Assembly: GCA_025325205.1 (NCBI GenBank)
Contig: GCA_025325205.1_4770.1
Length of the DNA stretch: 52,259 bases
Direction: 5' to 3' (one strand)
Source: a phage
The notes under the pieces were generated by a model. It worked only from the letters and a program-made list of their open reading frames with translations. It was not told the origin of the DNA and did no database searches. Position numbers and translations under genes: made by a program. How positions within the stretch are numbered: the stretch's first letter is position 1; each line of letters opens with the position of its first letter. Positions 5,653-34,180 of the stretch are shown here, piece after piece.

Positions 5653-5687
5653 TTATTAACGGCAACATAATTTAAGGAGTGACTATC

Positions 5688-5807: not shown

Positions 5808-5943
5808 GGCAACCACCGCTCCGCAGCGGAGGAGCTGATCAATAAGTTTAATGCTAAAGCGGGCGTTGAATTTGAGATCCTTGCTGGTGGTGAGCTCCCG
5901 GATCAAAGTGGTTACGCGTTTATTGTTCAATAAGGGGATAATT

Positions 5944-7062: not shown

Positions 7063-7516
7063 CACCCAACCTCACCGAAAGCCACCTTTCACCGAAAAAT
7101 CCGACATTTATACCATAAAATAGAATCGTTTTCGGGCTACAAAAATTCAAACTCAAAAATCCGATTCACTTCGAGAGTCACTTCAACAAAAATCGCTTGC
7201 AATCCAGTTTTCTTTTGTGTTAGACCGCGTGCCCGCATTATGCGCGTGCGCGAGCTTGTGAGCGCCTCGTTGTTGCGCAACAAATATTTCTTATATTGTT
7301 CGTATATTTTCGCTTAATATACGAAATGAAAGGAGGTAAGTGCATGAAAAATAAGGTAAAAATGTGTATGTGTGTGTATTTATATAAATTTTATAAAGAT
7401 TTTTTATTTTTGAGTTGTCTACTGACGACCCCCACGAGACCCCTTTATAAATAATATAAGAAATAAATTTCGCAACATTGCCAAATTTCCCCTTTAAAAA
7501 CAAGCATTTCAGTATC

Positions 7517-10362: not shown

Positions 10363-12912
10363 ATGCTGGAACTTTTTCCTCAAGAAATTAAACAATACGA
10401 ACAGTGGGCTGTCTGCGGTTTCCATCCAGGTACATCATCAGAAAAACAACCTTATGTGTGGGACGATGATTTAGGGGATATGGTCCCACTTCGTAAAGAC
10501 GGCAACGATAAAAAACCGTCTAATTTGCATTTACTAATGTCCTTTGAAGATGCGGAACGTTGTATTCGTTACTATAACGAAATCGGTCATAATCTGCGTT
10601 TAGGTTTCTATCTACTTCCAAGTGATCCGTTCTGTTGTATAGACATGGATATTAAAGACACCATGTCTGAAATGGAAAAGAAAGTTGCTGGTGAGCGATA
10701 TAAGAAGATTGTTGAATCGTTCCACAGTTATACGGAGATTTCCAGAAGTGGTGATGGGTTACACACATGGATTTATTCCATCCCTCAAGCTGGTAAGCGC
10801 CGTGATGGTGTGGAAGTGTATTCCCAGTATCGTTTTATTATCTGTACAGGGGATCACTGGGATATTACTCCGCGCACTGTGTCTGGTGCTCCAGGTAGTG
10901 AAAGCGAAGGGTATATCGCTAATCTCATTCATCAACTTATGTCTGAGATGAGTGAGATTAATGAGTGTGATGGCTTCCAAATGCTGGAACTTACTGAAGA
11001 AGATTTTAGTAACGACCCATATGCAATGGAAGACCAGGATGTCTATATCCAGTTGTGTGAACAAGAAAACGGAACATTGTTTAAGCAGCTATGGGAAGGT
11101 CGTTGGAGAGCTGAAGAAGTTGATACTTCTATCGGTGAACGTTGTTTCCCTTCTCAGTCTGAAGCAGAGTTTGCATTAATTGACTTTCTTTGCTTTAAGA
11201 GTAAGTACAATTTCCAGGTAAGACGTCTGTTCATGTATTCACCAATGAGTAGTCGTTACGATGATTCCCGTCGTCTGCCCGGTGAAAAAATCAAACGTCC
11301 TTATCACCTGGATAGAATGATTCGCAACTATCGCTATGACGCCCATGTTAAATCTATGGGACTTATGCAGATAGTTCAGAATAACGTTAATGCAGCTATA
11401 GAGCGCACGGAAAAACTGCGTCAAGCAACTACACCAGAACGCCCACCTGAAGAAGTGTTGACCACAGATGGTAATTACACTGAGGAGCAAGCGGACGGTT
11501 TAGCCTGGCCTCCGGGCTTTATGGGCGAGGTTGCGCGTAACATGTATAAAGCGAGCTTGTTGCCTATTAAAGACATTAGTATTCTGTCTGCTCTTGCTTT
11601 ATTTAGTGGTATGTGCGGTAAGGCGTGGAACACGGTTACACGAAGTGGTCTGAACAACTACTTTGTATTAATTGCACGTTCTGGTATTGGTAAAGAAGCA
11701 TTTCGCTCTAACATTGAAACAATTCTTTCTCAGGTTTCCAATTATGGCGGTCAGGACGGGCAACAGATATTCGGTATTGAACGTGTTTTAGATACCAGTA
11801 CCTATGCGTCTGATGCTGCATTGCGCAAAGACGTCATAATGGATACGTCTGTTATGTCTTGTGGCTCATCCATTAACTATAAGACTGAAGTCGGTGCGTT
11901 TTTCCGTAACGGTAAGATGGAAGTTGGTAAAGCTAAAGACATTATGGATGAAATGCTTTCCCTTTATGATAAAGGACATTTCTATGCTTTCTCTGGTGGT
12001 TCAAAGCACTCTAGCAAAGATAATACGACCGCTGGTGGTAAAGTCAAGGCGTATAGTTTTGCAGGTGAAACAACACCAGATGAATTTTATGGGAACGTTG
12101 ATGACCGCATGATGTCAAGTGGTTTCATGTCTCGTATTATTGCATGGGAATGTACAGCTAACCGCCCACTCATGAATAAGAGTATGCTCCTGGAATATCC
12201 GGAAGCAATTCTGCGGACTATTGGAGCTATCTATAAACAAGCTGTGCGTATTATGTCAGGGACTGCTCCATGTTATGTTGAAATGGAAGCAGAGGTACAC
12301 GAAGCGTTTGATAACCTTGATAATGTTGTCGCGAAGTTCCTGAATAGCGGTAATGACGGTGAACAGGTACAGGATGAAGTAATCCGTCAGATGTACACAA
12401 GGAAGGCGTTGAAGGTATTGCGTATCGCCTCCCTTCTTGCTGTAGCAGATAACAGTGAGCGTCCTGTTGTTACTATGGAACATTATCGTTGGGCTGAGTC
12501 ATTTATTGATCAGGGTAACGAGCGTTTCTTAGAGAAGCGTAATAGTGGGCTGATTGGGTCTACAGATAGTACCAGTCGTGAGAAAATAATGCTCAACTCT
12601 ATCAAGAAGTTCTTGGATGGGGAAGTTAAAGCTGGTGTGTATAAACGGTTCCCAATGTTTAAGGACGCGTTTATTGTCACACGAAGTGATCTATGCACAG
12701 TATGTCGCCAGTTCAAGGCTTTTAAACAAACAAGAAATGACAACATCTTGCAGGTCATAGACAACACAATTTATGGTTTGATGTCCATGGAAGTTCTTAC
12801 TGAGATGAGGCCAATGGACTTTTCAAGTTTCTTCGGTGCAGAGTTTACACCACCGAGGATGAAATGTTATTTGGTGGACATTGAGAGAATGAACGAAGTT
12901 ATTAAGTTATAA
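10363..12912 (+). CDS. DNA primase-polymerase (archaeo-eukaryotic primase superfamily) with large C-terminal domain
   Basis: AEP motifs in order: CCIDMDIKD (hhhDxD), SRSGDGLHTWIY (sGxGxH), FIICTGDHWD; C-terminal region has only a degenerate P-loop-like SGIGKE, so helicase activity is not supported. Confidence 0.6.
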   Translation: MLELFPQEIKQYEQWAVCGFHPGTSSEKQPYVWDDDLGDMVPLRKDGNDKKPSNLHLLMSFEDAERCIRYYNEIGHNLRLGFYLLPSDPFCCIDMDIKDTMSEMEKKVAGERYKKIVESFHSYTEISRSGDGLHTWIYSIPQAGKRRDGVEVYSQYRFIICTGDHWDITPRTVSGAPGSESEGYIANLIHQLMSEMSEINECDGFQMLELTEEDFSNDPYAMEDQDVYIQLCEQENGTLFKQLWEGRWRAEEVDTSIGERCFPSQSEAEFALIDFLCFKSKYNFQVRRLFMYSPMSSRYDDSRRLPGEKIKRPYHLDRMIRNYRYDAHVKSMGLMQIVQNNVNAAIERTEKLRQATTPERPPEEVLTTDGNYTEEQADGLAWPPGFMGEVARNMYKASLLPIKDISILSALALFSGMCGKAWNTVTRSGLNNYFVLIARSGIGKEAFRSNIETILSQVSNYGGQDGQQIFGIERVLDTSTYASDAALRKDVIMDTSVMSCGSSINYKTEVGAFFRNGKMEVGKAKDIMDEMLSLYDKGHFYAFSGGSKHSSKDNTTAGGKVKAYSFAGETTPDEFYGNVDDRMMSSGFMSRIIAWECTANRPLMNKSMLLEYPEAILRTIGAIYKQAVRIMSGTAPCYVEMEAEVHEAFDNLDNVVAKFLNSGNDGEQVQDEVIRQMYTRKALKVLRIASLLAVADNSERPVVTMEHYRWAESFIDQGNERFLEKRNSGLIGSTDSTSREKIMLNSIKKFLDGEVKAGVYKRFPMFKDAFIVTRSDLCTVCRQFKAFKQTRNDNILQVIDNTIYGLMSMEVLTEMRPMDFSSFFGAEFTPPRMKCYLVDIERMNEVIKL

Positions 12913-19461: not shown

Positions 19462-20384
19462 TGGCCGGTTTAGGAATGCAATTTAACGCTGGACAACACG
19501 CAGAGCGTCAACACAATAGCTTGATGCCCGCTGGTTGGTATGTTGTTCAGATTGTAAACTCTGAAATCAAACCGACTAAAACTCCAGGCGGTGCGCGTCT
19601 GAATCTTCAGTTTAAGATTATGCAGGGTGATTTTGCTGGTCGTGTAATGTTTGGCGGTTACAACGTCAAGAACGCGAACCCTGTCGCTGTACAGATTGCA
19701 ATGGAAGAACTGGCAGAGCTGTCCCGTGCTGTTAAAGTTCCAGTTTGGAACGATACCGAACAACTGCACGGTATTCCGTTCAACCTGAAAGTGAAAGTTC
19801 GTCAGCAACCTGGCTATGAGCCAAACAACGAACCTCAGATTTATCAAGCAATTGATAATATGGAAGGTGTTGTATACGCAACTAAGGCGGACATGGCTAA
19901 CCTGCCTAAATCAACTCCGGCAGCGGCAGCACAGTCTCCAGCATTTGGTGGCGGTGCGTTCGGTGGTACTCAGCAGCCACAGCAGCAGCAACCGCAGCAG
20001 GGTTTCCCTGGTGCATTTGGGCAGCAGCCGCAGCAACAGCAGCAGCAACCTCAGACTCAGGGGTTCCAGCAGCAGCAGCAACAGCAACAACAGCCGCAGC
20101 AGCCGGTACAGCAGCAGCAACCGCAGCAGTCTGGAACAGTTGATTTTAACAGTGCGGCACAATCTCAACCGTGGGCTAATGGTGCGCAGCAGCAGACTCA
20201 GCAGCAACCTAACTGGGCAACTCAGCAGGTACAGCCTGGAGCAGAGCAACCACAAACTCAAGCTCAGAATACTGGTACTGCTAACCATGCAGAACCTGAA
20301 GTCCAGGATGATATCGCTAAAGCAGCTCAGACCAAGACTCCACCGTGGAAACGTTCCACTGAAGGCGATGACGCTGCACAGTAA
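19461..20384 (+). CDS. putative ssDNA-binding protein with Gln/Pro-rich low-complexity linker
   Basis: Globular N-terminal part then QQPQQQQ... tract and acidic C-terminus; position next to Sak4-like ATPase; no OB-fold motif verified. Confidence 0.35.
   Translation: MAGLGMQFNAGQHAERQHNSLMPAGWYVVQIVNSEIKPTKTPGGARLNLQFKIMQGDFAGRVMFGGYNVKNANPVAVQIAMEELAELSRAVKVPVWNDTEQLHGIPFNLKVKVRQQPGYEPNNEPQIYQAIDNMEGVVYATKADMANLPKSTPAAAAQSPAFGGGAFGGTQQPQQQQPQQGFPGAFGQQPQQQQQQPQTQGFQQQQQQQQQPQQPVQQQQPQQSGTVDFNSAAQSQPWANGAQQQTQQQPNWATQQVQPGAEQPQTQAQNTGTANHAEPEVQDDIAKAAQTKTPPWKRSTEGDDAAQ
19971..20130 (+). repeat. CAG/CAA-rich (poly-Gln/Pro) coding microsatellite
   Basis: Runs of cagcagcagcaaccgcagcag read from sequence inside ORF 19461-20384. 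Confidence 0.8.
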
Positions 20385-20403
20385 TTAAAAATCATGTTAT
20401 AAT

Positions 20404-20430
20404 AAAGCTCCTCCGGGAGCTTTATTTTTC
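20404..20430 (+). terminator. rho-independent terminator
   Basis: AAAGCTCC-tccg-GGAGCTTT hairpin followed by ATTTTTC. Confidence 0.6.
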
Positions 20431-20446: not shown

Positions 20447-21397
20447 ATGCCACATTTTTATCCTGCTACTAAGACAATGGAGTTATTCAATGACTGTATT
20501 GAACGAGATCAAGGATCCGCTTACAGAGTATGGCTCGGAAAAGTATTACCGCATATTGAAGACGCATATCGAGAGGGAGATGGCGGATTCCGTTCGCATC
20601 TTGGGATTAGTCTTATCGGGCAAGAATGTAGTAGAGCAATCTTCTACGGATGGAGATGGGCAACTAAACCACACTTTAACGGTAAAACCTTACGTCTATT
20701 CAATCGCGGGCATCTTGAAGAAGGTCGCTTCGTGGCCTTATTACTTACCGCCGGTATGCAAGTCATCCAACAAGACGAAAATGGCAGCCAGTATAGAGTC
20801 AGCTATCTCAACGGGCACTTTGGTTCCGCGATAGATGGTATTGTCATTGGTTGCCCCGACATGCCACAACCTTCTACACCAATCTTAACGGAGATGAAAA
20901 CGCACAATAACGATTCGTTCAAGAAACTTGTCGTTAATGGTGTGATGGAATCCAAATGGGAGCACTATGTTCAGATGCAGGAATACATGTTGTATTATGG
21001 GCTCCCAGCCGCTCTTTATATTGCAGTTAATAAGAACACGGACGAGATTTGGGCAGAGCTTGTACCGTTTGATAAAGAAACAGCAGAACGCTACAAAGAC
21101 CGTGGATTTGTAATTGCACTGGCGGAATGCCCACCACCTAAGATCAATGAAAGTAAATCTTACTATAAATGCAAATGGTGTGACCACAAAGCGGTGTGCC
21201 ATAACAACAAAATGCCTGAAGTTAACTGCCGCACCTGTAAGCACTCTTATCCGCTTGAAGATGGAACCTGGAGATGCGCAATCAAAGTAGCTTCTGCTAC
21301 TGCATACATCACGGATGGAACCGAAGGTGTATTAACGAAGGAAGATCAGATGGCAGCATGTGGTCAATACGAAGCAGCAGATTATTACGGTGAGTAA
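20447..21397 (+). CDS. Cas4/RecB-like PD-(D/E)XK exonuclease with cysteine cluster
   Basis: AIDGIV ... TEMKT (D...ExK); N-terminal Cys (QECSRA) plus C-terminal CKWCDHKAVC suggest a Cas4-type Fe-S site. Confidence 0.55.
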   Translation: MPHFYPATKTMELFNDCIERDQGSAYRVWLGKVLPHIEDAYREGDGGFRSHLGISLIGQECSRAIFYGWRWATKPHFNGKTLRLFNRGHLEEGRFVALLLTAGMQVIQQDENGSQYRVSYLNGHFGSAIDGIVIGCPDMPQPSTPILTEMKTHNNDSFKKLVVNGVMESKWEHYVQMQEYMLYYGLPAALYIAVNKNTDEIWAELVPFDKETAERYKDRGFVIALAECPPPKINESKSYYKCKWCDHKAVCHNNKMPEVNCRTCKHSYPLEDGTWRCAIKVASATAYITDGTEGVLTKEDQMAACGQYEAADYYGE

Positions 21398-23648: not shown

Positions 23649-24371
23649 ATGTACATATTAGTCGATTATGATCGGATGCAGGTATTAGCTAAGCATCCAA
23701 ACTTCCAACGTCTTCATGAGTATGGAATTCTGTGTTGTAGCGAAAGCTCTGTAGTTCTTCCGTTGGAAGTTGAAGAACTATATAAAGAGTTTGATGATGT
23801 ACAAATGCAACTTTTGTACATCAACTTAACGGGTAATAAGCAAGGTGCTTTATATCCAAAGAAAATGATCAGTAAGATCATTCATTATTTTTTAAATGAA
23901 ATACCGGAGACAGTAATAGATGCGGATGTGGCTGAACAAGCGGACTGGGCAATTGCTAGTAATAAAGAGGGTGAGTGCATGTACCGCGAAGGCAGCTCTG
24001 TTCCAGATTTGGGGGAGGAGCCTAATATTCAAGTACGGAATGATAGTTCATTGGAATCCGCCATCATTGACGGCCCAACCGTACAGACAAATATGGGCAT
24101 ACAAGGGGCATGGACACCGACAAGAGAGCGGCAAGGTACTAGCACACCGGCAAACGAAAAACGTGCCGCAACGTCGCGTACAGCCGGCACTCGCGATATT
24201 ATTTTCGCTGTTGCTGACGAAATGTGGAAAGAAGCTGGTGAACCTCGTGACAAGAAGGAAATCCTTCAGCTTAGAAAACAAATGATGGATCGTTTAGAGG
24301 CAGAAGGTGTGAAGCGTAATACATCAAGTAATACATTAGGGGTCTGGGTAAAAGAACGTGGCTTAAATTAA
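23649..24371 (+). CDS. hypothetical protein
   Basis: 240-aa ORF; no motif recognised. Confidence 0.4.
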   Translation: MYILVDYDRMQVLAKHPNFQRLHEYGILCCSESSVVLPLEVEELYKEFDDVQMQLLYINLTGNKQGALYPKKMISKIIHYFLNEIPETVIDADVAEQADWAIASNKEGECMYREGSSVPDLGEEPNIQVRNDSSLESAIIDGPTVQTNMGIQGAWTPTRERQGTSTPANEKRAATSRTAGTRDIIFAVADEMWKEAGEPRDKKEILQLRKQMMDRLEAEGVKRNTSSNTLGVWVKERGLN

Positions 24372-24383
24372 TTAACTAAAATA

Positions 24384-24412
24384 TTGCATAGTTCTTTTAG
24401 AGGGGTTATAGT
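24384..24412 (+). promoter_or_regulatory. strong candidate sigma70 promoter (TTGCAT-N17-TATAGT)
   Basis: -35 TTGCAT 24384-24389, 17-nt spacer, -10 TATAGT 24407-24412; GAGG RBS and ATG 24468 downstream. Confidence 0.55.
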
Positions 24413-24467
24413 GCAACCACTTAGAACGTAGTTCACAACCAATAACCACACTGTGAGGATTTAAATC

Positions 24468-25292
24468 ATGGCTAAAGAGAAAACTCCAGAACAACTGGAA
24501 GCAGAAGAAGCAGCAAAGAAAGCAGCAAAAGAAGCTGAAGCAAAGAAAAAACGTGAAGCTGAAGAAAAAGCAGCACGTGAATTGCAGGCTAAAGTTGACG
24601 CCGCAATGAACGAAGCCACTGCCGGTTACAATGTGATCGAAGGTGCTATGTCCGCTGTTAAAGAACAGTTTGACACTCTGCACGAAGGTTCGTTGCTGGA
24701 CGAAGTTAAAGCAGTTGAAGGCGTAGTTACCGCTCAACTGAAGACCGCTAAAGAAGGTCTGAAAGCTGTTAAAGCAGCAGCACGTAAAGTTAAAGACAAC
24801 GATCAACTGAAAACTGCCGTTGCAGCATCTGAAGATCTGGTTTCCGGTGTTGAAGCCACTCTGAAAGATGTTAAAGGCCGTGTATCCGCTGCCCGCGAAG
24901 CCACTAAAGCCGCTGAAAAAGCGAAACGTGACGCTGAACGCGCTGAGAAGAAACGTCTGCAAGACGAAGAGCGCGCTCGTAAAGCAGCAGAACGCGAAGC
25001 TAAGAAAGAGCCGGAACAGAACGGTATTCGTAAGCCTGGTGTTGGTACGCTGTGCCGTGCTGCATGGGACATTTTTGATGCTGTTACCCTGGAGCTGGGT
25101 CAGACTGCACCGATCAGCTACGTTCTGCCGGTTGCACTGGACAAAGGCCTGAACGAAGCGAACGTCAAAGCGGAATACGCTCGCTGGAAGAAATACATGG
25201 GCATTACTGGTCGCGTATCAGTCCCAGTACCTGCTAATATTGCACAGGCGGCCGCTAACGTAGAAATTCCGTCTCAGAAATCTGCAGAGTAA
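24468..25292 (+). CDS. Lys/Glu/Ala-rich coiled-coil-type protein, unknown function
   Basis: 274 aa, charged repetitive EAKK/AAKE composition; codons look like highly expressed E. coli genes (CGT, CTG, GAA, AAA, GGT, GCT) unlike neighbours. Confidence 0.5.
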   Translation: MAKEKTPEQLEAEEAAKKAAKEAEAKKKREAEEKAARELQAKVDAAMNEATAGYNVIEGAMSAVKEQFDTLHEGSLLDEVKAVEGVVTAQLKTAKEGLKAVKAAARKVKDNDQLKTAVAASEDLVSGVEATLKDVKGRVSAAREATKAAEKAKRDAERAEKKRLQDEERARKAAEREAKKEPEQNGIRKPGVGTLCRAAWDIFDAVTLELGQTAPISYVLPVALDKGLNEANVKAEYARWKKYMGITGRVSVPVPANIAQAAANVEIPSQKSAE

Positions 25293-25316
25293 TCTGTAGA
25301 CACTTCGGAAACTCAG

Positions 25317-25345
25317 AAGGGGCATTTACTGCCCCTTTGTTATCT
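25317..25345 (+). terminator. rho-independent terminator
   Basis: GGGGCA-ttta-CTGCCCC hairpin followed by TTTGTTATCTT. Confidence 0.55.
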
Positions 25346-25360
25346 TACCCCGAGGTTCAA

Positions 25361-26125
25361 ATGTTTGCACAAGCCATTATCGCCCACCACTGGGCTCAAG
25401 CCAAATTTGGAAATCATATGAAAATTATTAATACTCAGGAACCTGAGAAGTTAGTTCGTGAACGTGGTATTCTTGATGTACATTCCATTTTTCATACCAT
25501 TCAAGGCGAAGGCCCATTTTGTGGTCAACCTGCCGTATTCGTTCGATTAGCTGGTTGTAACCTGCAATGCCCAGGTTGCGATACAAACTATACGTCCAAT
25601 CGTAATAAAATGAGTCACAGTGATATTTGGCAAGAAATCGTTCGTGTCACTGGTGAAGCCAAGACTAAATTAGTTGTCATTACTGGTGGCGAACCTTTCC
25701 GTCAACCTGAAGTTGTTAGTTTTATCAACTACCTTATTGATATGAAAGGATACCGTGTACAGGTTGAAACTAACGGGACTATGCCTATCCCGCGTGAACT
25801 CAACTATAGTTGTGTGGTAGTATGTAGTCCTAAGGCAGCAAAGATTCACCCTAGCGTTTCCGCTCGAGCAAATGCTTTCAAATATGTAATGAAAAGTGGA
25901 AACGTCAACGAGGAAGATGGATTACCGTTGCAGGCACTGGATCACCGTGCAACACCATTTATCGCACGTCCGCCTGTACACTTTAAAGGTAATATTTATC
26001 TTCAGCCTATGGATGAACAAGACGACGATGCTAATAAAGCAAACGCTCAAGCTGTCGTTAAATACGCAATGAAGCATAATTATATCGTGCAATTGCAGGT
26101 TCATAAGTATTTAGGTGTAGAATAA
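25361..26125 (+). CDS. queE: 7-carboxy-7-deazaguanine synthase (radical SAM, QueE-like)
   Basis: GEGPFCG ... LAGCNLQCPGCDT (CxxxCxxC radical-SAM cluster motif), VITGGEP; start chosen at ATG 25361 after GAGG. Confidence 0.7.
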   Translation: MFAQAIIAHHWAQAKFGNHMKIINTQEPEKLVRERGILDVHSIFHTIQGEGPFCGQPAVFVRLAGCNLQCPGCDTNYTSNRNKMSHSDIWQEIVRVTGEAKTKLVVITGGEPFRQPEVVSFINYLIDMKGYRVQVETNGTMPIPRELNYSCVVVCSPKAAKIHPSVSARANAFKYVMKSGNVNEEDGLPLQALDHRATPFIARPPVHFKGNIYLQPMDEQDDDANKANAQAVVKYAMKHNYIVQLQVHKYLGVE

Positions 26126-26203
26126 AGTTATACATATTTGAAAACGCGCGGATGGTCAGCGTGCTGAAAGATACAATGTGTTCAACTAATAAGGTAAATT
26201 ATT

Positions 26204-26965
26204 ATGATCAAATATGTCCAATTACTTGGTGAGATTGTTCCGGAAGATGTATTGAATAAGTGCCTGTTCGATGAAGACGGGTTTGTAAAACATTATGTAG
26301 ATACACCTTCCCAGTTTGCATCTCACTCGGCTCTTGGATTTGTAATTCGAGCTGGATATGCAGTGGATGTGTTGAACGACATGAGTCCTACAGTCACTGT
26401 TTTTGTTGAAGGTATGGACGTACATGATCTTATGAATTTAAAGACCGTTTATAACACGCATGTGACACCACCACGTAATGCACTTTACAAATGGCGTATC
26501 AATACTTCTGTTAGTAGAATCCAAAAACCAGCAGAAGAAGCGGAAGCGGATGCCAAGAAGTACACGACATCTACTCAGAAACTAGCTGGTATGATGGAGG
26601 ATGTACTTACGAGCGCCTTTAAAGTTGATCGTAACAAAGAAGGTGAGCCAGAAGTATTCATTGATGAAGCATTAATTAAGAAAGATCATATCCAGGAGAT
26701 TAAAGCTCCACGTCCGAATAAATATATGCGCAAAATTAAAACTTTTGAATCGCATGATATTAACGGTAGCCCGATTGAAATTGATGTATGGGTTGACGTG
26801 TACGACGTAATTAAAGCATTCAATGTAACCAGTGGGCCCATGCAACATGCACTGAAGAAAGTGCTGTGTGCTGGTGAGCGCGGTCATAAAGACTTGCTGA
26901 AAGACCTCAACGACATCATTGCATCCGTTGAGCGTGAAATTGAAATGGTTAAGGAAGGTAATTAA
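26204..26965 (+). CDS. hypothetical protein embedded in the 7-deazaguanine module
   Basis: 253-aa ORF between queE and gat-queC; no motif recognised. Confidence 0.45.
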   Translation: MIKYVQLLGEIVPEDVLNKCLFDEDGFVKHYVDTPSQFASHSALGFVIRAGYAVDVLNDMSPTVTVFVEGMDVHDLMNLKTVYNTHVTPPRNALYKWRINTSVSRIQKPAEEAEADAKKYTTSTQKLAGMMEDVLTSAFKVDRNKEGEPEVFIDEALIKKDHIQEIKAPRPNKYMRKIKTFESHDINGSPIEIDVWVDVYDVIKAFNVTSGPMQHALKKVLCAGERGHKDLLKDLNDIIASVEREIEMVKEGN

Positions 26966-26966
26966 T

Positions 26967-28382
26967 ATGTGCTCTATCTTTGGTGTTATTACTAACGGTC
27001 AACCTGAAAGTCTTATCATTCGTAACGATATCAACGATCTCATTAAAGCTAGTGTCAACCGTGGTCGTGATGGTCTTGGTGTACGCTTTACGCATGGTGA
27101 CCACAGTATGCACCCGCAACGTATCGTCAGCGTCGGTAAAGAAACATCGATGGAACGTCTTGTTAAAGTGGGGCGCATTGCATCTCACGCTGGAGCTATT
27201 GGCAGCTTCACGATGATTGGTAACGCTCGTGCTGAACCGACTACAGAATGGGTCGTTGACAAGAGCGAGTGGGACCAGCAACCATATCACCTCGATGGTT
27301 GGACTATTGTTCATAACGGTACTATTGCGAACGATAAAGACCTTCGCACCTATGCACTACAAACTAAGATCGATAGTGCTGCAATTGTTGAACAGTTAGC
27401 AGAATGCACACTTTCAAATGATGAAACATGTTTAACTGACTTTAACTACCTGTATAGTGTGTTTCACGAAGTTGTTCGTAAACTGAAAGGGAGTTACGCA
27501 ATTCTTGCGACACATGATTCATTCCCTGGATGCGTGTTTGCAGCATGTAACTATCGTCCGATTTGGATTGGCCAGACTAATACTGGTATGTATTTCGCCA
27601 GCCAGGAAGATATGTTACCGACCAGCGCAACTAAGCGGATGTTGAAACCTTACTCATGTAGTGTGGTTACAGCTACAGATGTACAAAATGAAGTTGATCT
27701 TATTCCAAATAAGCAGACTCAACGTGCGTTAGTTGTCGCCAGTGGTGGTATGGACAGTACGGTGGCAGCTCAGATGTGCAAGTCCAATGGTTTAGATGTC
27801 ACTCTCATTAACTTCCAGTATGGTTGTCGTGCAGAAACTAATGAGTTAAAGGCTATTCGTAAGATTGCGGAAGTAATGGAAGTTCCGTTAGTTGAGTTCC
27901 CAATCCCAATTTACGATAAGAAAGACAGCCCGTTATTTGATCAAGACGCTGCAATTGCTGGTGGCGAAGAAGGTGCTGAGTTTGCCCATGAATGGGTTCC
28001 AGCTCGTAACCTTGTAATGCTTTCTGTTGCTACTGCATACGCAGAAGCTAACGGTTTCGACTATATTGTTCTTGGTAACAACTTAGAAGAAGCTGGAGCC
28101 TATCCGGACAACGAGCCTGAGTTTATTAACCGCTTTAATCAGGTGCTACCATTCGCTGTAGGCGACGGTAAGCGCGTTGAAGTGCTCATGCCAGTAGGTA
28201 ACTTAATGAAGCACGAAATTGTCGCTACAGGCCTACGTTTAGGGGCCCCGCTTGAGCACACCTGGAGCTGTTACCGTAACGGGGATTTGCATTGTGGTAC
28301 TTGTGGCCCTTGCATGATGCGTCGGACTGCGTTTAATATTAATAACGCACAAGAAGTTATTAAATACGAAAGCGAGGAATAA
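26967..28382 (+). CDS. queC: glutamine amidotransferase-QueC fusion (7-cyano-7-deazaguanine synthase-like with N-terminal class-II GATase)
   Basis: Begins MCSIFGV (Ntn Cys after Met, asparagine-synthetase-like); central ALVVASGGMDSTVAAQMC PP-loop (SGGxDS); C-terminal WSCYRNGDLHCGTCGPCMMR Zn-Cys cluster typical of QueC. Confidence 0.7.
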   Translation: MCSIFGVITNGQPESLIIRNDINDLIKASVNRGRDGLGVRFTHGDHSMHPQRIVSVGKETSMERLVKVGRIASHAGAIGSFTMIGNARAEPTTEWVVDKSEWDQQPYHLDGWTIVHNGTIANDKDLRTYALQTKIDSAAIVEQLAECTLSNDETCLTDFNYLYSVFHEVVRKLKGSYAILATHDSFPGCVFAACNYRPIWIGQTNTGMYFASQEDMLPTSATKRMLKPYSCSVVTATDVQNEVDLIPNKQTQRALVVASGGMDSTVAAQMCKSNGLDVTLINFQYGCRAETNELKAIRKIAEVMEVPLVEFPIPIYDKKDSPLFDQDAAIAGGEEGAEFAHEWVPARNLVMLSVATAYAEANGFDYIVLGNNLEEAGAYPDNEPEFINRFNQVLPFAVGDGKRVEVLMPVGNLMKHEIVATGLRLGAPLEHTWSCYRNGDLHCGTCGPCMMRRTAFNINNAQEVIKYESEE

Positions 28383-28383
28383 A

Positions 28384-28917
28384 ATGGGTTACACTGTTAT
28401 TCGTTCACATGAGATTTGCGCTGGTCATCGTGTTGTAGGTCATGAAAGTAAGTGTCAACACTTTCACGGTCACAACTATAAGTTCCATTTTAAAGTTGCA
28501 CCAAAGAAAACATTGTCGGAAGGTTACGTCAAATCTGTAAGTGGATTTGCTCTGAATGGCTCTCTGGACGATGTGGGCCGCGTTATAGACTTTAGTGTGG
28601 TTAAAACTACGCTGTGTCAGTGGTTGGAAGATAATTGGGATCATAAGTTCCTGCATTGGGAACATGACAGCGTAATTAATTCACTTATTATTGTTGCATC
28701 AACTAAGTTCGCGCGTGAAAATAATCTAGTAAAGGACGAAGATTATGATCCTTTCGTTAATTCACTGGTATCTTTACCGTTCAACCCAACTGCGGAAAAC
28801 TTAGCTGCATATATGGTTGACGTAATTGGTCCTCAATTACTTGACCAGTATGGTGTTGAACTGGTAGAATGCACCATTGAAGAAACGTCCAAATGCCATG
28901 TTAACTATTGCAAATGA
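28384..28917 (+). CDS. queD: 6-carboxy-5,6,7,8-tetrahydropterin synthase (QueD-like)
   Basis: CAGHRVVGHESKCQHFHGHNY contains the CxxxHGH zinc/catalytic motif of the PTPS/QueD family. Confidence 0.7.
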   Translation: MGYTVIRSHEICAGHRVVGHESKCQHFHGHNYKFHFKVAPKKTLSEGYVKSVSGFALNGSLDDVGRVIDFSVVKTTLCQWLEDNWDHKFLHWEHDSVINSLIIVASTKFARENNLVKDEDYDPFVNSLVSLPFNPTAENLAAYMVDVIGPQLLDQYGVELVECTIEETSKCHVNYCK

Positions 28918-28943
28918 TTGACCACACAAGGAAACTGTAAACC

Positions 28944-29558
28944 ATGAACGAATTTACAAAGATGACAAACAGAGCAGAGATTTCGCACAGCATTGAAAAG
29001 ATTTTAAAGTTGATTGAAGGTGGGGATGATCTGCGTGAAGGCTTGGTTGAAACTCCATCACGAGTCGCTAAAGCATTTGAAACATGGTTCAGCGGTTACG
29101 ATGTTGATATTGCATCCTTGTTCAAGACCTTTGAAGATGGTGGGGAAAACTGCAATGAAATGGTTATTGTTCGTGATATTCCTGTTTACAGTCATTGCGA
29201 ACACCATATGGCCCCTATTATCGGTCACGCTGTCGTGGGGTATGTTCCTAACGGTCGCATCGTGGGGCTTAGTAAACTGTCTCGCGTGGTTGATGCTTTT
29301 AGCCGTCGCTTGCAAGTCCAGGAGCGTTTAACTAACCAGATTGCGGATGCTATCGTAGAACACTTAGACCCGAAAGCTGTGTGTGTTTACATCGATGCAA
29401 AACATATGTGTATGGAGTCGCGCGGTGTCAAGCAAGTTTGCGGAAGCTCAACCATTACTAAAGCATTCCGTGGGCGTACTGCATTGGGCGATGGTGTATT
29501 ACCTGATGTGACGGGTGACACATGGCGTCGGGAATTTCTTGAAGCGTGTAAGAAGTAA
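28944..29558 (+). CDS. folE: GTP cyclohydrolase I (FolE)
   Basis: VYSHCEHHMAPIIGHAVVGYVPNGRIVGLSKLSRVVDAFSRRLQVQERLT: conserved CEHH zinc motif and GLSKL...QVQER segment. Confidence 0.8.
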   Translation: MNEFTKMTNRAEISHSIEKILKLIEGGDDLREGLVETPSRVAKAFETWFSGYDVDIASLFKTFEDGGENCNEMVIVRDIPVYSHCEHHMAPIIGHAVVGYVPNGRIVGLSKLSRVVDAFSRRLQVQERLTNQIADAIVEHLDPKAVCVYIDAKHMCMESRGVKQVCGSSTITKAFRGRTALGDGVLPDVTGDTWRREFLEACKK

Positions 29559-29592
29559 CTGATTTGCGAATCATACATTATCTTTAATATAA

Positions 29593-29618
29593 TAAGCGCC
29601 TACGGGCGCTTATTTGTT
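29593..29618 (+). terminator. rho-independent terminator (possibly partial) between folE and dpdA
   Basis: AGCGCC-tacg-GGCGCT hairpin followed by TATTTGTT. Confidence 0.5.
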
Positions 29619-29627
29619 AGGTGAACA

Positions 29628-30581
29628 ATGCACAGAGAAGATATCAATTATACCTTTCAGATTTATATGGCTGCCGTATATACGAACAGCTATAAACCAG
29701 GAATGAACCGCTATGTTAAACTCAACGAACAAGAAAAACGTGTTGTCGAAAATATTCCAAACATTCTTGAATCCTGGCACTACGTTGGAAAGCAATCATA
29801 TGTTGATGCCATGCGTGCCGATGGGGCCAAGATATTCCTCGACTCCGGGGCGTTCTCAGCTTACACTTTGGGAGTTACGTTATCAGTTAAAGAATACTGC
29901 GATTACATCCAACGAAACATAGATATCATTCGTGTAGAAGATGGTTCACTTATGGCGTCCGTACTCGATGGTATCGGTGATCCACTTCAAACATGGCGTA
30001 ACCAGGAAGAGATGGAAGCCAGAGGTGTAAGACCTTTACCATGCTTCCACGCGGGTGAACCTTTTGAATACCTGGACCATTATGTACGAAATTATGAGTA
30101 TATCACGCTCGGTGGTCTTGTTGGAGCAAGTACGCAACAACTTCAGATATGGCTGGACAGGGTATGGGATAAACACCTTGTGGATGGTAGTGGACGCGCT
30201 AAAATTAAAGTTCACGGATTTGGTATTACATCCCGTCCACTTATGGAGCGTTACCCGTGGTACTCCTGTGACTCATCTTCCTGGATCCAATCCGCGGCGT
30301 TCGGTGCTATTGAAACGCCTAAATGGGGACCAATGCAGGTATCAGAAAAGTCCCCGTCACGTCACTATCAAGGGCAACATATCTGTAATCTTTCAGAAAT
30401 AGAACAGAACAACGTTCTACGCTACTTAGAGGAGTCAGGTTTCACATACGAGCGACTTTCAACGATATATGAATCACGAGCTGCATACAATTTATGGGCG
30501 TATGGTGTGGTCAACGCTATGATTCTTGCTAACCACAATGGGAAGTTCAACGAACGTCTTCAGGATTTATTTGACGAGTAA
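29628..30581 (+). CDS. dpdA: DNA-guanine transglycosylase (TGT-like, DpdA family) candidate
   Basis: 317 aa; KIFLDSGAFS resembles the TGT catalytic-Asp motif (DSGGFQ); last gene of the preQ0 pathway cluster; start uncertain (weak RBS). Confidence 0.55.
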   Translation: MHREDINYTFQIYMAAVYTNSYKPGMNRYVKLNEQEKRVVENIPNILESWHYVGKQSYVDAMRADGAKIFLDSGAFSAYTLGVTLSVKEYCDYIQRNIDIIRVEDGSLMASVLDGIGDPLQTWRNQEEMEARGVRPLPCFHAGEPFEYLDHYVRNYEYITLGGLVGASTQQLQIWLDRVWDKHLVDGSGRAKIKVHGFGITSRPLMERYPWYSCDSSSWIQSAAFGAIETPKWGPMQVSEKSPSRHYQGQHICNLSEIEQNNVLRYLEESGFTYERLSTIYESRAAYNLWAYGVVNAMILANHNGKFNERLQDLFDE

Positions 30582-30589
30582 GGTTACTT

Positions 30590-31582
30590 ATGGATTTACT
30601 TGATGCTTTAAAGTTTGTTCAGGGTTCTGTAGCTAAGAAAGAACTCCAGGAAGGTTTAACTCACTTCCGTATTGTTGATGGTACTGTTCGCGGGTTCAAC
30701 GGAACTATTTCATTGTGTAGTCCAGTACCACTGAACATTGACTGTACACCGAAAGCCGAACCGATGCTCAAGGCTATTGCAGCATGTGACGAAGCTGTAC
30801 AGATGACAATGTTAGCGAACGGTAAGTTGAGCATTAAGTCTGGTGGCTTTAAGGTCAGTGTAGACACTCTTCAGAAACCAACTGCGCACGTAGAGCCAGA
30901 AGGAACAATTCACGAAATAGACGGTCAGCTTTTTCTCAACGGTTTAAGCCGCGTAACGCCGTTTATAAGCGACGATGCTTCCCGCCCGTGGTCTTGCGGC
31001 GTGCTGGTAAAACAGGGCAGCATGTACGCAACCAACAACGCTAGTATTATACAATATTGGTTCGGTGCTGTATTCCCTGTCGATTGTGTTGTGCCACGTA
31101 TGGCCATCAAAGAATTATTGCGTATTAAAAAGCCACCAGTAAGAATTCAATGTACAGATACCAGTATGACATTTCACTACGAAGACGGTTGCTGGTTGCG
31201 TACCCAATTGCTGGAATTAAAGTGGCCCAACATTGACAAGATAATCGAGCGTACAGAAAAGGGGTCTGACGTCTATACGCTTGATACTGAGCTTTTTAAC
31301 TGCTTAGAGAAAATAAAACCGTTCTGTGAACGTGATGGGCGTATCTACATGGAAAATGGTGTTGTGCGCACCCATTACAACGAGCTGGATGGTGCTAGTG
31401 CAATGTTCCGTGAATCTAAGTCAATTGGCGTGTATAATATAGATCTCATTATGCAGTTGAAAGGACTTGCAACGGACTGGGATGCCTCTCGTTTCAATGA
31501 AAAGGACGAAAGGGGTCTTTCAACTCCTATTATTTTTTATGGTGAAAATCTACGTGGGGTAATTGTAGGATTTCGTCTATGA
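30590..31582 (+). CDS. DNA polymerase sliding clamp (beta-clamp/DnaN-like)
   Basis: FISDDASRPWSCGVLVKQG...YATNNASII resembles the beta-clamp domain-II signature (F-x-S-x-DE-x-RP-x-L-x-GVL ... ATDG-RLA); N-terminal GTVRGFNGTISL like the clamp GTD strand; about 330 aa. Confidence 0.5.
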   Translation: MDLLDALKFVQGSVAKKELQEGLTHFRIVDGTVRGFNGTISLCSPVPLNIDCTPKAEPMLKAIAACDEAVQMTMLANGKLSIKSGGFKVSVDTLQKPTAHVEPEGTIHEIDGQLFLNGLSRVTPFISDDASRPWSCGVLVKQGSMYATNNASIIQYWFGAVFPVDCVVPRMAIKELLRIKKPPVRIQCTDTSMTFHYEDGCWLRTQLLELKWPNIDKIIERTEKGSDVYTLDTELFNCLEKIKPFCERDGRIYMENGVVRTHYNELDGASAMFRESKSIGVYNIDLIMQLKGLATDWDASRFNEKDERGLSTPIIFYGENLRGVIVGFRL

Positions 31583-32139
31583 GAAAAGCATTGCCGTTAC
31601 CGCCGTACACTTATCTTCATGAGTGCTTCGACTATAACGAAATTACTGGTGTCCTCACATGGAAAGTGAGGCCCTCACATCATTTTAAATCCGAAAGAGC
31701 TCGAAAGATCGCAAACACACTATTTTCTGGAAAACAAGCTGGAAATGTTGTCACATGTAGTGGTAAGAAATACTTACAAGTTACAATAGATAGAAAATTA
31801 TATCTTGTTCATAGAATTTGTTATAAAATGTATTATAACAAAGAACCGACTGTAATCGATCATGACGATGGAAATGGACTTCACAACTGGATATTAAACT
31901 TAAATGATGGTACAATGTCCGACAATATGAAAAACAGGAAGATGTTAGAATGCAATTCCACTGGTGTTACTGGTGTGAGTCTGACTAAATTAGGGATGTG
32001 GAATGCACATATAATGGTTGGATATAAGGGTTATAATCTATATACAGGCCCTGATTTGTTTGAAGCCTGTTGTGCTAGAAAATCCGCTGAACTATTATAT
32101 GGTTTTAATAAAAATCACGGTAAAGAGAGAAATCTATGA
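31579..32139 (+). CDS. HNH homing endonuclease with AP2-type DNA-binding domain
   Basis: IDHDDGNGLHNWILNLN (HNH core) and GVTGVSLTKLGMWNAHIMVGYKGYNLYTGPDLFEACCARKSAEL (AP2-like); AT-rich relative to flanks; ATGA overlaps on both sides. Confidence 0.7.
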   Translation: MRKALPLPPYTYLHECFDYNEITGVLTWKVRPSHHFKSERARKIANTLFSGKQAGNVVTCSGKKYLQVTIDRKLYLVHRICYKMYYNKEPTVIDHDDGNGLHNWILNLNDGTMSDNMKNRKMLECNSTGVTGVSLTKLGMWNAHIMVGYKGYNLYTGPDLFEACCARKSAELLYGFNKNHGKERNL

Positions 32140-34109
32140 GAAAAGACGCGATTGGGTTTTTCTGGACGGATTTACCTCCCGCTAAGAAAGAGAAGAAACA
32201 GAAAGTAAAACGTCAACCAGTTGAAAGGGTATGGGAGCGCCCAGACTACCTTCCAGGTCTTGATGCAGCAATGCGTTTTGCAGCTAATGATCCGCGTATG
32301 ACAGACGGTGAATTAGTGGAGATGTATTTTGCACAAGAAACGTTCGTATACGATATCGAATGCTATAAGAACTATTTTCTTGTAGCGTTTAAAGGGGTTA
32401 AGTTCGGTAAGGTTTATTATCTAGAAATGACTGCTGGTCAAACACTTGACACGGAAAAGTATGAATGGATAATGAAGAACTTTCGTACCGTTGGTTTCAA
32501 CTCAAGAAACTACGATAATACGATGACATTCCTTGCCATTGCTGGTCTGACTGTTGACAAGCTGAAAGAAGCAAGTGACAGGATGATCCAGGAAGAGTGG
32601 GCCCCGTGGGACATTCTTAACAGTTTTGGTGTGAAGCAGTTTTGGATTGACCACATTGACGTTCAAGAAGTAGCTCCTGGCTTCGGTTCCCTAAAATTGT
32701 ACGGTGGCCGTATGCACATGCAGAAGCTCCAGGACTTACCGTTCCCACCGCATTGGGCGCTGTCCATAGAACAGATTGCTATTGTGCGCTTCTACTGTAT
32801 CAACGACCTTGATACAACAATGGCTCTGTTTAACTCACTGGAAGAGCAGATCCATCTACGTGAGATTATGAGTGAAGAGTATAAAGTAGACCTTCGCTCT
32901 AAATCTGACGCACAAATTGCAGAAGCAGTAATCCGCCATGAAATGAAGGAAATGTTGGGCTTCGTACCACAGAAGGGTATGGTGGAAGTTGGTAGAACCT
33001 TCAGATATAATCCTCCAGTGTGGTTAGGTTTCCAAACGCCACTAATGAAGTCCGTATTTCAGGTGGTGCTTGACAGTTACTTCCGAGTTGCAGAAGATGG
33101 TAAGATTAAGCAACCATCTACAATGAACTCTTTGAAGTTTACGATCAACCAGACAACTTACAACATGGGTATCGGTGGTCTACACTCTTGCGAAGAGTTA
33201 ATGGAGATTGTACCATCTGAAGATGAAGAGATGTGGGATGCTGACGTAACGTCGTACTACCCAATCTGTATCATCAACCAGCAACTGTATCCTGAACACC
33301 TGGGCCCACGCTTTATCGATATCTTCGTCAAGATCGTAGAACGACGTATTGCAGCTAAGATGGCTCACGACGATAAGACAGCACAAACTCTTAAGATCGT
33401 TATCAACGGTTCTTATGGTAAGTTTGGTTCACCGTTCTCTATCCTGTATGCACCGCACCTTATTATCCAGACTACGCTAACAGGTCAGTTAGCTTTGCTT
33501 ATGCTCATTGAGACATTGGAGCTTAACGGTATCCAGGTCGTTAGTGCTAACACAGATGGTATCGTTATTAAACCTTGCAAAGCTAAGAAGCAATTAATGA
33601 CTGATATCATTAAGTGGTGGGAAGAGACAACTGGCTTTGAAATGGAACTGAATCAGTACCTGCGTCTTAACTCTGCAAACGTTAACAACTACGTCGCAAT
33701 CAAGGCGGATGGTAAAGCCAAGCGTAAAGGTTGGTTCGCAGAGACAGGTCTTGCTAAGAACGCGGAAGGTGAGATTATTATGGATGCTGTGGTTAATCTC
33801 CTCCGTGACGGTACGCCAATTGCTAAAACTATCACAGAGTGTCAAGATATTCGTAAGTTTGTTTGTATCAAGACAGCTAACGGTGGCGCCGCGTGGAATA
33901 GTGAGCCATTAGGTAAAGTTGTTCGTTGGTATTATACAAAAGAGGAAGTACCTGAAATACTGATAGTCAAGAGTGGTGGTCGTGTTGGTAAGACAGCAGG
34001 GGGTAAACCTATGATGGAACTCACTGACCAGTTACCGCCGGATCTCAACCACGAAGTGTACATAGCTAAAGCGGAAAAATTGCTGGAAAAACTCGCATAC
34101 GCCGCTTAA
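32136..34109 (+). CDS. DNA polymerase, family B (with 3'-5' exonuclease domain)
   Basis: Exo I VYDIE, Exo II NSRNYD, Exo III YCINDLD; pol motif A DVTSYYP, motif B KIVINGSYGKFG (Kx3NSxYG), motif C ANTDGIV. Confidence 0.75.
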   Translation: MRKDAIGFFWTDLPPAKKEKKQKVKRQPVERVWERPDYLPGLDAAMRFAANDPRMTDGELVEMYFAQETFVYDIECYKNYFLVAFKGVKFGKVYYLEMTAGQTLDTEKYEWIMKNFRTVGFNSRNYDNTMTFLAIAGLTVDKLKEASDRMIQEEWAPWDILNSFGVKQFWIDHIDVQEVAPGFGSLKLYGGRMHMQKLQDLPFPPHWALSIEQIAIVRFYCINDLDTTMALFNSLEEQIHLREIMSEEYKVDLRSKSDAQIAEAVIRHEMKEMLGFVPQKGMVEVGRTFRYNPPVWLGFQTPLMKSVFQVVLDSYFRVAEDGKIKQPSTMNSLKFTINQTTYNMGIGGLHSCEELMEIVPSEDEEMWDADVTSYYPICIINQQLYPEHLGPRFIDIFVKIVERRIAAKMAHDDKTAQTLKIVINGSYGKFGSPFSILYAPHLIIQTTLTGQLALLMLIETLELNGIQVVSANTDGIVIKPCKAKKQLMTDIIKWWEETTGFEMELNQYLRLNSANVNNYVAIKADGKAKRKGWFAETGLAKNAEGEIIMDAVVNLLRDGTPIAKTITECQDIRKFVCIKTANGGAAWNSEPLGKVVRWYYTKEEVPEILIVKSGGRVGKTAGGKPMMELTDQLPPDLNHEVYIAKAEKLLEKLAYAA

Positions 34110-34110
34110 T

Positions 34111-34143
34111 AAAAAGTGGGCCAATACGTTTGTACTGGCCCAC
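34111..34143 (-). terminator. rho-independent terminator for the minus-strand late transcript (convergent junction)
   Basis: GTGGGCCA ... TGGCCCAC stem (34116-34143) with A-run on plus strand (T-run on minus) at 34111-34115. Confidence 0.5.
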
Positions 34144-34180
34144 AATAAAATGCCCCCAAAATGCCGCACGTTGCCTCTGC

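Follow-up and report, generated by a model that had tools for sequence, protein, structure and literature searches.

The DNA analysed here, called the window below, is a phage sequence of 52,259 nucleotides (contig GCA_025325205.1_4770.1). The subject is a string of genes on its + strand, consisting of dpdA, a sliding-clamp gene, an HNH endonuclease gene and a DNA polymerase gene (pol), together with a hairpin that separates dpdA from the preceding folE. The stretch 29400–34200 has 94–95% identity with Salmonella phage SE1 and Escherichia phages JenP2, BRET, HdSG1, JenK1 and 9g, and on this basis the window is assigned to Nonagvirus (phage 9g-like), subfamily Queuovirinae. The gene arrangement itself is already known from 9g-like annotation. 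The early replication-gene block covers ~6.2–34.1 kb of the + strand. In this block, the helicase gene is followed by the preQ0/G+ biosynthesis genes queE–orf253–gat-queC–queD–folE and then by dpdA–clamp–HNH–pol, which is the distal end of the Nonagvirus early block. The unit is closed by a bidirectional terminator at 34116–34143 (12-bp stem, folding free energy dG −21), which is also a terminator in the HdSG1 annotation, and it is convergent there with the minus-strand late genes.

folE (28944–29558) encodes GTP cyclohydrolase I (Pfam PF01227, 3e-63) and is the last biosynthesis gene. dpdA (29628–30581) encodes the DNA guanine transglycosylase that inserts the 7-deazaguanine base (PHROG 887, 9e-99). 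Its product is 99.4% identical to the DpdA of HdSG1, which the HdSG1 record annotates as identical to 9g DpdA, and the invariant His196 is present. No Pfam match was found for DpdA, and sequence and profile searches of the PDB gave no DpdA or tRNA-guanine transglycosylase (TGT) match. The AlphaFold2 (AF2) model, built on a shallow alignment, had a predicted local distance difference test score (pLDDT) of 65, and Foldseek returned generic TIM barrels, with TGT at rank 12 (template modelling score, TM, 0.43). 9g DpdA exchanges guanine in double-stranded DNA for preQ0/G+ (PMC6884629). In E. coli, 9g DpdA together with Gat-QueC replaced as much as 18% of the G of plasmid DNA by dG+ (archaeosine) (Hutinet 2019, PMC6884629).

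The next gene (30590–31582) encodes a DnaN-type beta sliding clamp of three domains and 330 aa (AF2/Foldseek; PHROG 947). The AF2 model had a pLDDT of 92 and a predicted TM score (pTM) of 0.85. Each of the top 50 Foldseek matches in the PDB was to a DnaN-type clamp, either on its own or as part of a complex (best E 4e-21, TM 0.79–0.80), and hhalign against E. coli DnaN gave a probability of 89%. No Pfam DNA_pol3_beta match was obtained, and the identity to the bacterial DnaN chains matched by fold was 14–18%. The protein is filed, on its predicted fold, as a DnaN-fold phage clamp (PHROG 947) and not as a DnaN orthologue. The family-B DNA polymerase (32136–34109, 657 aa) was identified by PHROG 1252 and PDB 1s5j (1.4e-8). 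Its PDB matches include E. coli Pol II, its Pfam DNA_pol_B_2 score was under the cut-off, and the motifs Exo I–III and A/B/C are present in the translation (YDIECY, NSRNYD, YCINDLD, DADVTSYYP, KIVINGSYGKFG and NTDG).

Between the clamp and polymerase genes lies an HNH homing endonuclease cassette of 186 aa (31579–32139; PHROG 99, 2e-49; Pfam HNH_3 score 18.3, under the cut-off of 24.8). A 12-nt direct repeat, CTATGAGAAAAG, flanks it at 31577–31588 and 32134–32145. The cassette is present in SE1 and absent from most of the 94–95% identical genomes, which have a single clamp/pol ATGA overlap. By its distribution and its repeats, the HNH gene is classed as a mobile insert, a free-standing homing endonuclease.

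A preliminary description of this DNA had reported a beta-clamp-like gene within 9 nt of dpdA, followed by HNH and family-B polymerase genes with ATGA overlaps, and this was borne out: dpdA stops at 30581 and the clamp ATG is at 30590 (8-nt gap; the dpdA stop is overlapped by an AAGG), and the overlaps are at 31579–31582 (clamp/HNH) and 32136–32139 (HNH/pol). The translational coupling of dpdA with the replisome genes that it proposed fits these gaps and overlaps, but they are not specific to this string. Junctions of ≤12 nt make up 16 of 36 (about 40%) in the + strand block, so the spacing of dpdA–clamp–HNH–pol is typical compaction. The repeat around the cassette means that both ATGA overlaps are copies of one ancestral clamp/pol junction. 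The tight spacing and the overlaps are generic compaction and a by-product of the HNH insertion, and no special coupling device.

The dpdA–clamp–pol string is also a hot spot of precise junction insertions (31577–31588/32134–32145 in the window, 5520–6008 in locus L008 and 6912–7394 in locus L002). SE1 and JenP1 carry a second HNH gene (162 aa, with an EVDH...N...H motif) in the gap between hairpin and dpdA. Klebsiella relatives have an unannotated open reading frame (ORF) of ~140–160 aa in the dpdA/clamp gap. The 441-nt dpdA–clamp spacer of these relatives was considered as a loss of coupling and rejected, as the unannotated ORF ends at the clamp start.

Hairpin and promoter-like site between folE and dpdA

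The hairpin with a T-rich tail that had been described between folE and dpdA is present, with its coordinates corrected to 29591–29614 and its tail to 29618. It is of the intrinsic-terminator type by folding and by the HdSG1 annotation, with a 10-bp stem, a UACG tetraloop and a UGUU tail (5′ arm 29591–29600, loop 29601–29604, 3′ arm 29605–29614, tail TGTT to 29618). The stem-loop reads AATAAGCGCC-TACG-GGCGCTTATT (dG −15.5 kcal/mol); in RNA form, the 3′ arm after UACG reads GGCGCUUAUU. The stem contains a 5-bp GC core, and its lower A-U part doubles as a U-tract (UUAUUUGUU) with 7 U in 9 bases, the first 5 of which are paired with the upstream A-tract. The folE/dpdA intergenic region of 82 nt has a folding z of −3.4, and 1 of 200 shuffles folds equally well. 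The hairpin begins 33 nt past the folE stop (29558) and ends 13 nt ahead of the dpdA ATG (29628). Directly 3′ of the tail, the Shine-Dalgarno sequence of dpdA (AGGTGA, 29619–29624) can be read. In the HdSG1 GenBank record, an ARNOLD terminator (−15.9) is annotated at the homologous site.

For the comparison with relatives, loci were taken as stretches of 6–8 kb on either side of dpdA. The DpdA profile search listed close relatives only, and the diversity came from a family-representative search and from scans of the loci. The hairpin sequence is identical across distinct 9g-like loci. Klebsiella relatives keep it despite unrelated flanks, and one copy has the loop changed from UACG to UAAG with the stem intact. 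In SE1, JenP1 and locus L010, an extra gene is inserted downstream of the hairpin. The hairpin stays upstream of these inserts and hence marks the 5′ edge of the dpdA unit. At least nine different hairpin sequences occupy the folE/dpdA site in other lineages, among them slur01-type Seuratvirus (L022–L024) and the uncultured loci L013–17, L021, L052, L055, L067, L072 and L080; one of them pairs through G-U. Different hairpins at the same site, together with the G-U pairing, argue for selection on RNA structure at folE/dpdA. In total, a hairpin upstream of dpdA was found in 19 of 79 distinct close loci and in 0 of 74 distant loci.

An initial assignment of L013–L017 to Seuratvirus was wrong: their DpdA is ≤70% identical to that of any cultured phage, and the slur01-type loci are L022–L024. 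Other functions of the hairpin were considered as well. Rfam at permissive thresholds gave no known RNA family in 24000–35000, and a riboswitch was rejected for this reason and because the tail is U-rich and not A-rich, unlike preQ1-I. An RNase III site was rejected by reasoning, as the 10-bp stem is too short.

A sigma-70-like promoter candidate overlaps the hairpin on the + strand (29564–29593). It consists of TTGCGA (29564–29569), a spacer of 18 nt and TATAAT (29588–29593) and matches 10 of 12 consensus positions. Its −10 element reaches 3 nt into the hairpin's 5′ arm, and the start is predicted at ~29599–29602. As a start at ~29600 lies inside the hairpin, transcripts begun there would be without the 5′ arm. 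Sites with a match of at least 10/12 occur seven times in 28.2 kb of the + strand, and two of the seven sit in identical register on hairpins, those at 20401 and 29591. The second composite (20375–20426, + strand, 10/12 match) lies in the gap between the genes for SSB and the Cas4-like exonuclease: it has TGCACA, 17 nt and TATAAT, and its −10 also ends 3 nt inside the hairpin (20401–20426). The latter hairpin has the sequence AATAAAGCTCC-TCCG-GGAGCTTTATT. The candidate upstream of dpdA is identical in 9g-like phages, and the Klebsiella group keeps its −10. At the different hairpins of L013, L022 and L067, overlapping promoter-like sites occur as well, each a −10-like hexamer inside the hairpin with a −35-like hexamer 17–18 nt upstream.

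Comparable hairpins occur about seven times in the early block, spaced every 2–6 kb. Intergenic hairpins of the same strength are found at 6736, 12919, 15126, 20401 and 25316, and the strong bidirectional one follows pol at 34116. Several of them immediately precede the ribosome-binding site of the next gene. If they terminate efficiently, internal promoters or antitermination would be needed in the block.

The dpdA–clamp string and the C-terminal tail of DpdA

dpdA is followed by a clamp gene on the same strand in almost all of ~170 loci, down to 29% DpdA identity. All close loci that extend far enough downstream have this order (DpdA identity 44–100%); in L016/L088, the clamp is ~6 kb downstream of dpdA. 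It was also found in 72 of 80 distant environmental viral loci, and seven of the other eight are contigs that end within ~1 kb of dpdA. In Bacillus phage Flasso (29% DpdA identity), the clamp gene lies 590 nt downstream of dpdA. The adjacency persists through many intervening gene insertions and through replacement of the polymerase, where family-B polymerase (PolB) gives way to a UDG-like/3′-5′ exonuclease/family-A polymerase (PolA) or, in some loci, to a putative DnaE-type protein. By these comparisons, dpdA–clamp–pol is taken to be a deeply conserved gene string. The arrangement queE–queC–queD–folE–dpdA beside the polymerase has been described as conserved across Queuovirinae (PMC10484667).

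In distant DpdA viruses (L107–L186), a UDG-exonuclease-PolA follows the clamp directly, as a fusion or as two ORFs (e.g. L172, 11056–12285; L176, 5741–8317), and starts with MKGFF. In some distant loci, the product after the clamp opens with the PHP-like FCHLHVH; DnaE-type was judged by N-terminal sequence only. The actinophage-type dpdA (L187–L189 and L191, including Rosebush, Sour, Finch and Mufasa8, as well as the uncultured L105) is found beside ParB-like nuclease/partition genes, usually near the terminase. This partnership of dpdA with ParB-like genes is conserved too and is distinct from that with the clamp.

The tail of DpdA carries a candidate clamp-binding motif. In the window, the peptide is GKFNERLQDLFDE, the tail reads ...NERLQDLFDE, and the codons of Q312-D-L-F315 are at 30561–30572 on the + strand; the motif was picked out by tail conservation. 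In bacterial proteins, the clamp-binding motif is QL[S/D]LF, generally QxxLF, where positions 1, 4 and 5 weigh most, and it is often terminal (PMC12309361). In the close set, 50 of 57 distinct tails stop at a terminal [LF]-[FY], with Q at position −3 in 43 and E/D at position −2 in 50. In DpdA, the terminal motif comes after a variable linker, and the endings seen in the distant set are K-G-F-[GDES]-[LI], x-G-F-F or x-x-L-F; the motif is present in 59 of 74 distinct distant DpdA tails vs 38 of 625 other long ORFs of the same loci. When the whole family was clustered at 50% identity (138 full-length representatives) and expectations were taken from shuffling the last 30 residues, 24 representatives ended in Q-x-x-[LMFI]-F (0.12 expected) and 41 in [LMFI]F (2.9 expected). 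The DpdA of Flasso ends in QGKLF.

The presence of the tail tracks a nearby clamp gene. The tail is absent in five DpdAs that lie in ParB/terminase contexts without a nearby clamp, i.e. those of L105, Rosebush, Gordonia phage Sour, Rhodococcus phage Finch and Arthrobacter phage Mufasa8.

A similar motif stands at the N-terminus of the polymerase encoded on the other side of the clamp gene. PolB starts MRKDAIGFFW.D: in the window, its N-terminal peptide is MRKDAIGFFWTDLPP, and the tail MRKDAIGFFWTD (GFFW at 32154–32165) is followed by a Lys/Pro-rich linker. A G[FLIM]FW motif followed by a low-complexity linker was found in all ~60 variants. The unrelated UDG-PolA after the clamp starts with MKGFF or similar, again an N-terminal G-[FL]-F. 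Within single genomes, the two motifs co-vary: in L123, DpdA ends in ..EGFDI and the polymerase starts with MPGFEI, and in L131, the pair is ..PNLF and MPALF. In the phage clamp, some elements of the E. coli cleft are still present, i.e. the AT.. (ATxx) loop, WP..K-I for F241-P242..R246-V247, and the C-terminal strand IVGFRL vs VMPMRL. In the literature library searched, no paper connects DpdA to a sliding clamp.

Two similar motifs elsewhere in the genome were looked at. MELF in the Cas4-like exonuclease (residues 11–14, 20477–20488) was rejected, as it is not conserved in orthologues (KTMHKIDS and similar). The primase (10363–10377) starts with MLELF; only relatives with 98–99% identity were retrieved, which makes its conservation uninformative. 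As a separate observation on the family, the DpdA-family proteins P0242, P0248, P0256, P0266, P0273 and P0300 are ~535–640 aa long, and their match is split after profile position ~205. A large insertion, perhaps an intein or a mobile element of another kind, appears to be present in them; for P0242, there was no Pfam match.

Proposed explanation and alternatives

The explanation towards which we lean, by a modest degree, is that a terminator–promoter insulator in front of dpdA is combined with a DpdA that is a client of the clamp. The hairpin would at least partly terminate transcripts from the preQ0-synthesis genes. The overlapping sigma-70-type promoter would fire within the 5′ arm, and its transcripts, which could not form the hairpin, would read into dpdA–clamp–pol. 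This insulator would give the insertion and replisome genes a transcription unit of their own, in a design that recurs at 20.4 kb. A separate dpdA–clamp–pol transcription unit is plausible in this lineage. DpdA would attach through its C-terminal tail, taken to be flexible, to the cleft of the clamp that would also receive the polymerase's N-terminal G-[FL]-F tail; the DpdA tail has QDLF in the window and Q-x-(x)-[LF]-F or G-F-x-L in relatives. Clamps on new DNA would recruit DpdA, and base exchange would be coupled to replication, as DNMT1 and UNG2 use PCNA.

The wider proposition is that DpdAs are sliding-clamp clients through a terminal peptide (with the phage clamp, possibly with host DnaN), that 7-deazaguanine is installed just behind the fork and that the ancient gene string reflects a three-way partnership. 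On the comparative evidence we regard it as evenly balanced. We infer the DpdA–clamp interaction itself from the comparative support that the conserved clamp-binding-like tail provides. The link of insertion to replication and the fork, suggested in the preliminary description, keeps the conserved dpdA–clamp–pol string in its favour. Against it stands that 9g DpdA works without phage clamp or polymerase (PMC6884629).

A number of points weigh against the proposed explanation. On the side of DpdA, 9g DpdA modifies plasmid DNA without phage clamp or polymerase (PMC6884629), which means that the phage replisome is not required; a tether would then enhance or time the reaction, or the host clamp may substitute. 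The window tail, Q-D-L-F-D-E, is one residue short of QxxLF and is not terminal. The tail has a pLDDT of <50, but the whole DpdA model is poor (pLDDT 65), and disorder is not established by it. The DpdA sequences compared are related, and counts overstate their independence.

On the side of transcription, 60 of the 79 close loci and all 74 distant ones are without a hairpin upstream of dpdA, and an overlap of folE with dpdA is frequent there. As folE and dpdA are contiguous or overlapping without a hairpin in most relatives, separate regulation is lineage-specific: by this survey, the separation of the synthesis genes from dpdA is a feature of some, mostly enterobacterial, lineages and not of the pathway. 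The earlier suggestion that synthesis and insertion are regulated separately can draw on the terminator-type hairpin and the overlapping promoter-like site, but it has to be narrowed to these lineages. A simple terminator scan of the window did not list the hairpin at 29591–29614, as its U-tail rule failed: after the full 10-bp stem, T makes up 3 of the 8 following bases. The hairpin was missed because the U-tract is partly paired with the upstream A-tract; the same scan lists the Klebsiella-relative version, which is one T richer. The Klebsiella group has lost the −35 element, and in several lineages the TTGC of the −35 lies within conserved folE Leu-Ala codons, and a constraint on these codons may be the reason for its conservation. 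Taken as a class, promoter-like sites show no enrichment in this region (25 observed vs 32.6 expected). A literature search gave no transcript, 5′-end or 3′-end data for Queuovirinae phages, and the sole RNA-seq paper concerned a T5-like phage. In the 9g paper, the whole early region was considered one transcription region with a distal promoter (Kulikov 2014, PMC4276943).

Much of this would also follow if the string were plain inherited synteny and compaction, with the hairpin as a leaky terminator or a stabiliser of mRNA 3′ ends in a long early operon and with a DpdA tail unrelated to the clamp. Short junctions are common (16 of 36), and about seven similar hairpins stand directly before ribosome-binding sites, where there is no room for a downstream promoter. 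The order of the cluster beside the polymerase is conserved across Queuovirinae (PMC10484667), one early transcription region has been put forward for 9g (PMC4276943), DpdA is active without the phage replisome (PMC6884629), and the hairpin is missing in most relatives. However, simple inheritance does not sit well with an adjacency that is kept down to 29% DpdA identity, through the change from PolB to UDG-PolA or DnaE and through many insertions. It also leaves aside the strong enrichment of the terminal motif, its tracking of the clamp gene and the register with hairpins of two of the seven sites at ≥10/12. We consider this account possible, if doubtful.

A narrower alternative concerns only the promoter: the hairpin would be a terminator or attenuator, and the promoter-like site would have arisen by chance from the A/T-rich base that a terminator of the bidirectional type has. 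Expression of dpdA–clamp–pol would then depend on read-through, perhaps with antitermination by the phage, and would be weaker or later than that of the biosynthesis genes. In fact, TATAAT arises from TAT and the AATAA of the stem base, the −35 is weak (4/6) and not conserved in Klebsiella relatives, and promoter-like sites are not enriched overall. In addition, the hairpins at 15126 and 25316 have no promoter-like site, yet genes follow directly. A chance origin is harder to reconcile with the same register at 20401, where the −35 is independent, and with the −10-like hexamers inside the different hairpins of L013, L022 and L067 with −35-like elements 17–18 nt upstream. Moreover, the TAT that precedes the stem, though no part of it, persists in three different flank contexts. 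On balance, the terminator-only account is unlikely.

The tail could also bind a partner other than the phage clamp, with the beta clamp of the host, Gat-QueC/QueC (for substrate channelling) and another DpdA subunit as candidates. Hutinet et al. inferred that preQ0 is channelled from Gat-QueC to DpdA, and they obtained efficient modification in E. coli without a phage clamp (PMC6884629). TGT-family enzymes act as dimers (PMC6884629), and a canonical QxxLF would also suit host DnaN (PMC12309361). The type of the tail, however, resembles the N-terminal motif of the clamp-adjacent polymerase and co-varies with it. The tail is also absent in the DpdAs of Sour, Finch, Mufasa8 and Rosebush, which are beside QueC genes but have no nearby clamp. 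Another partner is distinctly improbable.

Finally, the 24-bp perfect palindrome, which overlaps the promoter-like site, might be a DNA operator for a dimeric phage regulator over the −10 and start of a dpdA promoter and not an RNA structure, and the 9g paper does predict phage-encoded transcription regulators (PMC4276943), but this is very hard to believe given the terminator features (GC-rich stem, 4-nt UNCG-type loop, T-rich tail and a position right after a stop codon), the different stem sequences of the genome's two composite sites and the hairpin of one relative that pairs through G-U, which is relevant in RNA only.

The insulator–client explanation has counterparts in known systems. 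In phage and bacterial genomes, arrangements in which an intrinsic terminator and a promoter overlap insulate adjacent transcription units. The likeness is that the hairpin ends the upstream unit and that the −10 stands at or inside its 5′ arm, so that new transcripts would be without the hairpin. The difference is that the arrangement here is predicted from sequence, at 2 of ~7 hairpins of the block and in some related lineages only. DNMT1 and UNG2 are PCNA-tethered enzymes that modify or remove DNA bases and are recruited by a short clamp-binding peptide. The recruitment logic to newly replicated DNA would be the same, as an analogy only: PCNA differs from a DnaN-type clamp, the PCNA-interacting peptide (PIP) box from the DpdA motif, and the chemistry differs as well.

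Bacterial beta-clamp clients (Pol II, Pol IV, PolC, Hda and MutS/L; PMC12309361) are a closer parallel, with a short terminal motif after a variable linker that combines Q with a hydrophobic-aromatic pair. The two DpdA tail classes, ..Q-x-L-F and ..G-F-x-L, mirror their penta- and hexapeptide (QLxLxL) classes, and the partner has the DnaN fold. In contrast, DpdA is a putative client that exchanges bases as a transglycosylase, the clamp is phage-encoded and 14–18% identical to bacterial DnaN, and the Q in the lineage of the window is one position nearer to LF than in QxxLF. The dG+ cluster of 9g and Nonagvirus (PMC4276943; PMC6884629; HdSG1 MK373795) has the same genes in the same order with ~95% sequence identity and a near-identical DpdA, and in HdSG1 (MK373795), terminators are annotated at folE/dpdA and after pol. 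The window differs from the cluster in the HNH cassette at the clamp/pol junction, which it has like SE1. Neither an overlapping promoter nor a DpdA–clamp link is described in PMC4276943, PMC6884629, PMC10484667 and the GenBank annotations consulted. Actinophage (Rosebush-type) deazaguanine clusters share DpdA with queC/D/E and folE and have DNA with dPreQ0 (PMC6884629), but their dpdA lies beside ParB-like and terminase genes with no nearby clamp, and their DpdA is without the C-terminal motif.

A terminator–promoter element would explain how the long phage early region is divided into independently controlled units. A clamp-binding tail would explain how post-replicative exchange reaches fresh phage DNA before host restriction and why dpdA stays beside the clamp gene across very distant phages. 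If this is true, the tail is an engineering handle, as its removal or transplant should shift the extent or timing of modification. DpdA would then be a new enzyme class among the clients of bacterial-type clamps and the first base-exchange DNA-modification enzyme shown on such a clamp, i.e. a prokaryotic-virus counterpart of DNMT1 and UNG2 on PCNA.

Other genes of the early block

Upstream of the biosynthesis genes, the early block encodes primase, RusA, dUTPase, RNase H, ligase, Sak4, SSB, the Cas4-like exonuclease and helicase. The gap between queE and gat-queC holds orf253 (26204–26965), a conserved gene of 253 aa (PHROG 18443) whose function is not known. The C-terminal 70–110 residues of its product match several other unknown PHROGs and one labelled ATPase. 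orf253 has 79–99% identity among Nonagvirus relatives and was not detected in Klebsiella or other lineages.

In the mechanical ORF list, queE and gat-queC have TTG starts, at 25337 (within the terminator at 25316–25338) and at 26919 (in overlap with orf253), respectively. ATG 25361 for queE and ATG 26967 for gat-queC are probably the real starts, in agreement with the HdSG1 annotation. From ATG 26967, gat-queC begins with MCSIFG..., which provides the N-terminal Cys of a class II amidotransferase.

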